Part shown: positions 38,490 through 40,124 of the stretch, one piece after another
Position numbering within the stretch: position 1 is the stretch's first letter
Layout of the letters: each line of letters begins with the position of its first letter
The notes under the pieces: model-generated
What the model saw: only the letters and a program-made list of their open reading frames with translations
Told to the model about the DNA's origin: nothing
Databases searched by the model: none
Position numbers and translations under genes: made by a program
Assembly (NCBI GenBank): GCA_019455555.1
Contig: JAGFMF010011380.1
Location: 15,038,053-15,102,052, forward strand
DNA length: 64,000 bases
Direction of reading: 5' to 3'
From: Galemys pyrenaicus
Lineage: Eukaryota

Positions 38490-40124
38490 CTTAGTTTGTA
38501 GACTGAAGAGTCTGGTCCAAGGCAGTAAATCCCCCCAGCTTTGGAGTTTGTCATCCTTGTCTTTTTGCGCCTGAACGCTTATACCAAAGTCACTTCTTGT
38601 ATCTGATTTTGCCATCTCTTGGAAGAACGGAGGGGCTGGTAAGAACTTAGTACCTTCACTCCTGACCTTACTTCGCATTTTCAATGAATTTGGAAGATCT
38701 GTGACAGTCTGAAGGTCATCTTGGAAAAAATCTAGTGATGAAGCCATAGCAGAAGTATTTGATGCGGGAAAAAGGTCTGATTGATAATCATGAAGCACAG
38801 GTGGACCTGGTGGCAGATTGTCACTAATACTCAAACGAACTGGGAAGATTTGAAAATCACGAGGAGCAGCAGCAGGAAGACGGACAGGGGGACCAGGAAG
38901 AGGAAGGATAAAATCTCCAACTGGACGAGGGGGAGGAGGCCTAGGAGGAGTGGAAAATAGTGGCTGCTGCAGGGGAGAGTTCAATGCAAGAGGAGGACCA
39001 GCAAACCTGGGGATTGGACTGTCTTGATGAATTTCAGGTAGCTCATGCTGTTTGGGGGTAGGTGAGGCATATGAACCAGCACTTCTTAGAGAAGGAGGGG
39101 GACAAGGACCTCCTGGTAAAAGAGGGGGAGGTGGAGGGCTACCAAAAACTCCTGGTATAGGAGGGGGAGGAGGGACACAAAAACCTCCTGGTAAAGGAGG
39201 GGGAGGAGGAGGAGGAGTAGGCCCCCTAGGTAAAAGAGGGGGAGGAGGAGGGCCACAAGCACTTCCTGGTAAAGGAGGGGGAGGAGGGACACAAAAACCT
39301 GGTAAAGGAGGGGGAGGAGGAATGTGAGTAGGACCTCCTGGTAAAAGATGGGGAGGAGGAGGAGCACTTCTTGGTAAAGGAGGGGGAGGAGGGACACAAA
39401 AATCTCCTGGTAAAGGAGGGGGAGGAGGAGTGTGAGTAGGACCTCCTGGTAAAAAATGGGGTGGAGGAAGAGCACTTCCTGGTAAAGGAGGAGGAGGGGG
39501 AGGGGGAGGGACACAAGGACTTCCTGGCAAGGGATGGGGAGGAGGAGGAGAGGGACAAAGAATGGGCTGCTGGGGAGAACTCAATGCAAGTGGAGGTTCA
39601 GCAAACTCTGAGATTGAAATGTCTTGATGAAGTTTAGGCAGCATCTGCTGTTTGGGGCTAGATAAGGCATATAAACAAGCTGAAGCAGCAAAAGGTTGGA
39701 TCTGGGGAGATGAAAGAGAATGAAGCTTGAGGGGCATGTCAGTATAACTTTTAGTCTCTGGGCCCTGGTTAGATAGGGGAGTAGCAACAGAACCAAAAAG
39801 AGAGCTGTGAGGAGGTAAGGGGGTAGTCGGAGGGGAAGCAGGAGAATCTTCAGAGGCTTCTAGGGAAAGTAATAAAGAGGGGGCAGCCATTTCCTTTAAA
39901 ATGGATTTCCTCGTTTTTTGTTTCCATCTTCTTGGCATAAATGAAACCATCTGAGGTGAATCCAATGGTTTTTCCACATTTTCACAGGCAAAATTGAGTG
40001 GTTGGGAATCTAACTCAATCAATTCTGAAGATTCAGAAACTTCCAGGTCAGAAAACTCAGGTTTTTCTTCAGACAAACATATATGCAGCAATTGCTCACT
40101 CCACTCAGGGGAAGCTGGACGACA
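38490..40124 (-). CDS. PARP4: PARP4-like large exon (545 codons) containing an expanded poly-proline tandem array
   Basis: It is one open frame of 1,635 bp, divisible by 3. The splice acceptor is ttttctgggcag at 40125-40136 and the donor gtattagta follows the last codons ...[10 protein letters not shown]. The central ~450 bp encodes about ten copies of PPPPPLPG. The ends resemble human PARP4 ...SSEWPE... and ...VPWTELLSLQT as recalled. Confidence 0.7.
39050..39530. repeat. Intragenic coding minisatellite of ~36-39-bp units, about 10 copies, inside the PARP4-like large exon
   Basis: On the plus strand the motifs cctcctggtaaaggagggggaggagg and gacacaaaaacct recur. This generates spurious overlapping ORFs in other frames (39052-39327 plus, 39086-39514 minus, 39226-39558 minus). 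Confidence 0.8.

Follow-up and report, generated by a model that had tools for sequence, protein, structure and literature searches.

What is a run of about 150 proline-rich residues doing in the middle of PARP4, and how did it come to be there? The question is raised by 64,000 nucleotides of Galemys pyrenaicus DNA (contig JAGFMF010011380.1, positions 15,038,053 to 15,102,052; this whole stretch is called the window, and all coordinates below are its own), in which the minus strand carries a 545-codon exon whose core is given over to tandem repeats. The array is very probably a coding minisatellite that arose in situ in PARP4 exon 30, as tolerated or diversifying growth. The repeats and the sequences that frame them are the following.

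39102-39548, minus strand: coding minisatellite, exon residues 193-341, whose 12 units are rich in proline and measure 30-42 bp (10-14 amino acids), delimited by Tandem Repeats Finder, repeat search, codon table and shuffle test
39429-39548, minus strand: higher-order repeat 1, 3 units, 80-86% nucleotide identity to the other three copies
39321-39428, minus strand: higher-order repeat 2, 3 units, 93% nucleotide identity to repeat 3
39216-39320, minus strand: higher-order repeat 3, 3 units, from the unit table and nucleotide alignment
39102-39215, minus strand: higher-order repeat 4, 3 units, from the unit table and nucleotide alignment
39531-39680, minus strand: A1, the upstream copy of a flanking duplication, running into the first array unit, 75% identical to 38931-39080
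38931-39080, minus strand: A2, the downstream copy of the flanking duplication, 75% identical to A1
38910-38939, minus strand: a solitary relic unit that follows A2 and has 67-80% identity to units of the array

Tandem Repeats Finder places the array at 39093-39508 and describes it at two scales, with a period of 36 or 39 (9-11 copies, 67-70% matches) and with a period of 108 (3.6 copies, 85% matches, score 520; the scores for the array range from 247 to 520). A separate repeat search finds 11 in-register copies at a spacing of 33-45 bp. Splitting the codons at the proline runs yields 12 units of 10-14 residues each, which align as four higher-order repeats of 3 units; the middle unit of the higher-order repeat reads PPPPPLPxSA(CG), and the four copies share 80-93% nucleotide identity. 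The units lie head to tail with a regularity that exceeds what composition provides: the best gapless autocorrelation (0.564, at lag 39) is above that of all 1000 codon shuffles (mean 0.467, standard deviation 0.013, maximum 0.522). A preliminary description, made by a model from the letters of the window, had recognized the array and suggested the Tandem Repeats Finder run that locates it. The array is real, but it spans 39102-39548 rather than 39050-39530, has 12 units rather than about ten, and what was quoted there as the unit is actually two adjacent units of the 3-unit higher-order repeat.

The two diverged segments that the same description saw bracketing the array are evident in protein and DNA alike. 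In the protein, residues 155-187 and 354-388 have 21 of 33 amino acids in common (counted by hand); in the DNA, A1 and A2 constitute a 150-nucleotide direct repeat, 75% identical at an offset of 600 bp, and a MAFFT DNA alignment of the two gives 72% identity over 174 aligned positions. A2 is the counterpart of a segment that is single-copy in other mammals (in horse, FSSKQFDLPKTD...LDLPLQQSAF). Judged by its sequence, the relic unit that follows A2 corresponds to the one that grew after A1, but has not itself expanded. The order A1, 12-unit array, A2, one relic unit can thus be read as the outcome of a duplication of 'A + one unit' followed by expansion behind A1, and growth by tandem duplication (the preliminary description had supposed unequal crossing-over) is in keeping with the higher-order repeat, with the flanking duplication and with the solitary relic.

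The history of the array begins with the duplication of a block of ~150-190 bp that held the conserved segment 'SPKQ...LPE.HQD...PPLAL.SP.QQP' and one proline-rich unit. The unit behind the upstream copy then grew to 12 units (four 3-unit repeats), the unit behind the downstream copy staying single. The growth would have come about through slippage during replication, or through unequal exchange, in a polypyrimidine tract rich in CCN. The array would have persisted since exon 30 tolerates, or is selected for, change of sequence and length; it would add ~150 residues of polyproline-II-prone chain, lengthening and stiffening the tether of which the exon consists.

In every unit the coding strand reads as a run of pyrimidines (CCTCCTCCCCCTCC). 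On the plus (template) strand, 39093-39550 is rich in purines over ~450 bp, with GGAGGGGGAGGAGG blocks recurring in it, and no other bin of the window reaches the GC skew of 38001-40000 (+0.30). Tracts of this kind can fold into triplexes or G-quadruplexes and are prone to slippage.

The exon that contains the array lies between two others that the argument needs.

38490-40124, minus strand: PARP4 exon 30 orthologue, 545 codons, phase 0 at both ends, the tether from the vWA region to MINT
45193-45315, minus strand: upstream PARP4 exon, 41 codons, DDSELLSPDIPNILELIAKEDVDFLSYMSWQEEEPDANMLQ, donor gtaagt
36649-36748, minus strand: downstream PARP4 exon, DGFWKLTPELGFILKLNTNILNDFLEQKGIQSL..., inside the MINT domain (human 1562-1724)

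Human PARP4 (1724 residues; the tblastn query shares 99.1% identity with P0077, a database protein that clusters with named human and ape PARP4s) gives 19 collinear minus-strand matches to the window, covering residues 597-1723 from 63623 down to 30282. A search with the window's own exons, the non-repeat parts of exon 30 included, returns PARP4 orthologues for all 120 matches listed, one of them carrying the wrong source label VWA5A. The upstream exons match the Pfam families VIT (138 bits) and VWA (42 bits), and the last 40 residues of exon 30 with the three downstream exons correspond to human PARP4 1542-1719 in PDB entries 11jf, 9bw6 and 9bw7 (E = 4.6e-76); exon 30's final 40 residues by themselves match human 1542-1582. 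Collinear exons, orthologue matches, VIT and VWA domains and the PDB match all agree with the preliminary assignment to PARP4, and these alignments identify the exon as orthologous to exon 30 of human PARP4, for which PMC4038475 gives the exon number and the limits in the human protein, residues 1223-1582. (Exon 30 as a whole matches nothing among the PDB sequences. A protein search with its non-repeat flanks only also gives no match, despite ~60% identity to Talpa and Condylura over the exon; this reflects a limit of the word index, not absence.)

Translation of 38490-40124 is stop-free for 545 codons and yields the same 545 residues that had been reported before, on the minus strand, which the preliminary description does not name; the chance of such an open frame is ~4e-12, from (61/64)^545 with uniform codon usage assumed. 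The exon is entered through an acceptor made up of a polypyrimidine tract and an AG at 40125-40126 (minus strand), and left through the donor AAG/gtatta, with its GT at 38488-38489. The upstream exon (45315-45193) terminates in a whole codon (...PDANMLQ/gtaagt), and the downstream exon opens at 36748 with ag/GAT GGT TTC TGG, the start of DGFWKL; both exon 30 junctions are therefore phase 0. The exon is the largest, it has the conserved ...PW(T/N)ELFSLQT(E/K) end directly before DGFWKL, and the MINT domain sets in ~20 residues ahead of its end. Its inclusion in mRNA has indirect support from the splice sites, from the phase and from the three predicted Talpa isoforms, all of which retain the whole exon; mouse mRNA-length contigs include an analogous array. 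The array is accordingly expected to be translated in the window species.

Two further features of the exon's surroundings were noted. Most array units end, on the coding strand, like a strong 3' splice acceptor (a polypyrimidine run, then TTACCAG/G), which places ~10 acceptor-like sites inside exon 30; joining the phase-0 donor of the upstream exon to one of them would cause a frameshift. In the intron, ~40 bp upstream of the exon-30 acceptor, lies a short interspersed element (SINE)-like sequence of tRNA derivation, recognized by eye at ~40165-40300 (...CCCTGGTGGCGCAGTGGGTTAAGC...GTTCGATCC...).

What is on record about this part of PARP4 comes largely from Daugherty et al. 2014 (PMC4038475), in passages of that paper that describe exon 30 as the gene's largest exon, predicted to be almost wholly disordered, and as present in all human and rhesus expressed sequence tags. 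The same passages have it as the only part of PARP4 under positive selection, in primates and bats, and as 'highly variable' in 'sequence and length' across vertebrates. An AlphaFold2 single-sequence model of the window's exon (mean predicted local distance difference test score, pLDDT, 41.7; predicted template modelling score, pTM, 0.18), in which a helix at residues 6-17 is the only secondary structure, fits disorder, with the usual caveat that attaches to single-sequence models. Through the adjoining MINT domain PARP4 is anchored to repeats 3-5 of MVP, on the inner face of the vault wall; no other part of full-length PARP4 could be modelled (PMC12280208).

How old is the array? Predicted proteins of two other moles, Talpa occidentalis (XP_054543703.1) and Condylura cristata (XP_004680419.1), provide the nearest comparison. 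With exon 30 set aside, the window shares 91.2% identity with Talpa and 92.3% with Condylura, which are 92.1% identical to one another (hedgehog and horse are 77.5% and 84.7% identical to the window); these nearly equal pairwise identities of 91-92% make the window a third talpid lineage. Exon 30 is 555 residues long in Talpa and 523 in Condylura, against 352-360 in horse and human. In both moles a PPPPPLPG-type array stands at the window's position, followed by the A2 segment ('SPKQ.ELPEI.QD...LALNSPLQQ'), and in Condylura the A1 segment is present as well. Since all three of the mole lineages compared have an array in this position, the expansion predates their split.

Unit number and pattern differ among the three talpids. 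The Condylura array consists of three near-identical 38-residue repeats; that of Talpa has another series of units together with a 54-residue duplication that includes the SPKQ segment, its copies differing at one residue (LIL vs LIP). On these comparisons the triplets of the window are older and diverged, unlike the near-identical repeats of Condylura, and each mole lineage has since the split remodelled the array into a higher-order repeat of its own. The preliminary description had taken the expansion to be lineage-specific, which the Talpa and Condylura arrays contradict: as the sequences stand, it is a family-level trait of moles, visible already in public mole protein predictions.

Another feature links the window with Talpa. 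PARP4 ends in the window (~30282-30290, minus strand) with ...SPLHRVLN and a stop, and in Talpa with ...SPLHRVIN, in each case 5 residues short of Condylura, hedgehog and human (...NYSQG or ...HYSQG). This suggests a premature PARP4 stop that is either common to the window and Talpa or parallel in the two. About 9 kb downstream of the stop codon, at 21483-21589 on the minus strand, is a full-length match to U6 spliceosomal RNA (Rfam RF00026, 67.2 bits where 44 is the gathering score, covering 1-105 of the model's 105 positions), which may be a functional gene or one of the numerous U6 pseudogenes of mammals.

Beyond the moles, the region between FVAVEKR and DGFWKL was sliced from 120 PARP4 orthologues, and its length and proline runs were counted. 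Runs of at least 4 prolines are absent from most of the sampled species, in which the region has 370-405 residues: they were not found in any of the sampled carnivores, perissodactyls and haplorhine primates, nor in most of the bats, nor in elephant, manatee, sloth, anteater and squirrels. Human PARP4 (AAD47250.1) has no proline run longer than 2 and no PPLP. The surmise that the human protein lacks the array is thus correct, and the orthologue comparison that had been suggested as a check finds most mammals devoid of an array and no equality of repeat number. What does not survive it is the novelty of a proline expansion in exon 30, for PPPPPLPG-like arrays are found in Erinaceus, in Cervus, Ovis, Capra and Bos, in Sus, in Lemur catta, in Echinops, in Castor and in murids. 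The lengths of the region and the numbers of runs of at least 4 prolines are as follows.

Erinaceus (P0134): 601 residues, 6 runs
Cervus (P0061): 581 residues, 12 runs
Ovis (P0074): 508 residues, 5 runs
Capra: 415-468 residues, 3 runs
Bos mutus: 372-379 residues, 2-5 runs
Moschus: 443 residues, 4 runs
Odocoileus: 498 residues, 4 runs
Sus (P0102): 404 residues, 6 runs
Lemur catta (P0079): 462 residues, 6 runs
Echinops (P0088): 549 residues, 5 runs
Tenrec ecaudatus, a relative of Echinops: 393 residues, 0 runs
Castor: 322-402 residues, 4 runs
Mus: 582 residues, 10 runs
Arvicanthis: 572 residues, 8 runs
Phodopus: 441 residues, 6 runs

The arrays do not all occupy the same place. Referred to the horse sequence, the insertions fall at ~148-165 in murids, ~200-220 in moles and ~229-268 in ruminants; these positions are approximate, the alignments to horse running through poorly conserved sequence. 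Anchors located by eye agree with them. The mouse array precedes a 'SPKQFGPSK'-type anchor, the mole array follows it and lies between the A copies, and the ruminant array comes after a single A copy and before '...SASYKLP'. The PPPPP[LIV]PG-type arrays of Cervus, Ovis, Sus, Erinaceus, Lemur catta and Echinops likewise seem to lie elsewhere than the mole array. Differing sites of insertion speak for several independent origins rather than one ancestral array, and the PPPPP[LI]PG arrays in exon 30 of several orders have the appearance, in these alignments, of convergent gain. In the searchable full-text literature no description of a proline array in PARP4, or of its convergent build-up, was found (the broadest of these searches counts as weak evidence), and the passages of Daugherty et al. 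2014 (PMC4038475) that were covered describe no proline-rich tandem arrays.

The mouse array bears most directly on the stability of such sequence. Arrays of the genus Mus (P0146, P0144, P0104, P0148, P0149 and P0105; loci L001-L003) differ from one another in exact 12-residue steps.

M. musculus reference NP_001139450.2: 19 units
M. caroli: about 18 units
mRNA-length ENA contigs from 8 samples: 13 units
M. spicilegus and another ENA contig: 11 units
one Logan contig: 5 units

The differences may represent real variation or, in the short-read contigs that give some of the shorter forms, collapse of the repeat. By analogy, variation in the length of the window's array within its species is plausible. 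Diverged repeat copies are usually less unstable than pure arrays. The copies in the window are fairly diverged (67-70% matches between units, 85% at 108 bp), so that less instability is to be expected of them than of the near-perfect repeats of Condylura.

Selection for a new function, rather than tolerance, is the alternative that survives best. According to this reading, which goes back to the preliminary description, the array was selected as a docking surface: its units would bring profilin, proteins with WW, SH3 or EVH1 domains, or factors of pathogens into contact with PARP4 and the vault. The array does multiply generic proline-ligand motifs, with 6 PPLP, 9 runs of at least 5 prolines and one PxxPx[RK] in the window and none of the three in horse, bear, human, elephant or Myotis; the first two of these counts, set against zero in human and horse, speak for a gain of putative ligands. 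LPG- or IPG-ending proline arrays at different exon 30 sites in different orders can be counted as convergence in its favor, as can the positive selection on exon 30 in primates and bats that is reported in passages of PMC4038475. In mouse dendritic cells, moreover, VASP has been reported to pull down Parp4 and Mvp, neither of which came down in the presence of an EVH1 inhibitor, though the authors list both as unverified hits (PMC9581539).

Several considerations weigh on the other side. For the mole proteins, docking is a prediction from motifs. The EVH1 core motif [FLWY]PPPP does not occur in the window array, though it is present 4 times in each of Talpa, Condylura and mouse. Next to the tether is a domain that is docked in the vault lumen, which limits the access of cytosolic partners. 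The proportions of nonsynonymous and synonymous differences among repeat copies (pN/pS) point to no clear constraint. CCN-rich polypyrimidine tracts are prone to slippage, and recurrence of units built on them can therefore be mutational rather than selected. Selection of the array as a docking surface is accordingly considered unlikely. The more general proposition, that arrays at at least three exon 30 positions in at least five mammalian orders have converged under selection for coupling to profilin, Ena/VASP-type EVH1 or WW domains, or for the decoying of pathogens, is judged on the sequences at hand to be quite improbable; if it were true, the array would be a gained docking module and not low-complexity growth that is tolerated.

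That the array is not coding at all (a pseudo-exon, an intronic simple repeat, an assembly artefact, or sequence belonging to a plus-strand gene with a 91-residue Gly-rich open reading frame at 39052-39327) is very improbable. Low-complexity sequence leaves other frames open too, and reading frames of 91, 110 and 142 residues are present. But the 545-codon frame continues through non-repeat flanks that align with orthologues at both ends, the phase and splice sites of exon 30 are correct, two independent mole assemblies predict the same architecture, and nothing supports the plus-strand Gly-rich frame, which is simply what CCN codons give when read in antisense. The plus-strand frame of 91 residues and two minus-strand frames inside the array were considered and set aside as by-products of stop-free low-complexity sequence.

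The resemblance to formins requires separate comment, the array having been called FH1-like at the outset. In a search with the protein of the whole exon, the matches listed are all formins (DIAPH1, an FH2-domain protein), the lowest E being 3.6e-20, from 8000 candidates filled up by poly-proline proteins. The Pfam model Drf_FH1 (PF06346) is matched at 23.1 bits, below its gathering cut-off of 40. Composition-corrected BLASTP against the best formin match (P0001) detects nothing in the repeats, the best E (1.2) falling outside them, and homology with formins was consequently rejected, the matches being compositional. FH2 (PF02181) is absent from the domain lists of the PARP4 orthologues among the matches listed, and the exons downstream in the window encode MINT. 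The term FH1-like holds, then, for composition and fails for family membership; the array resembles FH1 in composition and may behave in a chemically similar way. The gain of a true formin FH1 module through exon shuffling or insertion of formin-derived sequence, for which the formin-only matches and the weak Drf_FH1 match could be cited, is hardly credible and already contradicted by these same comparisons: the score is below cut-off, the corrected similarity is nil in the repeats, the next exon is PARP4 MINT with no FH2 among the listed orthologues, and the array is framed by duplicated PARP4 sequence with its relic unit in place.

Growth of a minisatellite within exon 30 thus remains much the best account, and what weighs against it can be stated compactly. 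The lengthening and stiffening of the tether are read from amino acid composition. Among the higher-order copies pN/pS ranges from ~0.2 to 2, on only ~30 synonymous sites, a spread that favors neither constraint nor neutrality. The comparison between moles was made at the level of protein. The case for inclusion of the exon is built on its open reading frame, on its splice sites and on gene models of orthologues.

Taken by itself, the window's array is an ordinary in-frame minisatellite in an exon known to be hypervariable. Its wider interest is that PARP4 exon 30, under recurrent positive selection, is a proposed host-pathogen interface and that its changes go beyond point substitution, arrays having been built repeatedly and probably independently in moles, murids, ruminants, pig, hedgehog, lemur and tenrec; these recurrent arrays constitute natural length and motif variants of PARP4. 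Variability in the length of exon 30 was known, and the most interesting by-product of the analysis is the apparently convergent build-up of PPPPP[LI]PG at different sites.

Apart from the other moles, the window can be set beside four known systems. The first is exon 30 as treated in passages of Daugherty et al. 2014: the exon is the same by collinearity and by its conserved ends, and is likewise large, disordered and placed between the vWA region and MINT. Those passages cover point substitutions (the nonsynonymous-to-synonymous substitution rate ratio, dN/dS) in primates and bats, whereas the change in the window is a minisatellite that takes the exon from ~360 to 545 codons.

The second is the mouse Parp4 array, with units GGTH[IL]PPPPP[LI]P of 12 residues and 36 bp, in the same exon and with the same 36-bp period as the mole array, and with a very similar unit. 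It differs in lying upstream of the 'SPKQFGPSK'-type anchor, with the mole array downstream, and in its choice of synonymous codons. Strikingly alike as the units are, their placement on opposite sides of the anchor and their different synonymous codons disfavor a single array ancestral to mole and mouse; going by these sequences, the two are probably independent expansions.

The third is the formin FH1 segment, with which the array shares tandem PPPPP[LI]PG units, 3-5 small residues lying between one and the next, and, in both, an expected polyproline-II conformation. In formins PPPPP[LI]PG-type motifs bind profilin and WW and SH3 domains. FH2 adjoins FH1 in formins but does not adjoin the PARP4 array, and the array falls below the Pfam threshold. 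The fourth is the class of coding minisatellites, or variable number tandem repeats, of disordered protein regions, which the array matches in its in-frame head-to-tail units of 30-42 bp, in its higher-order structure and in its turnover between species.

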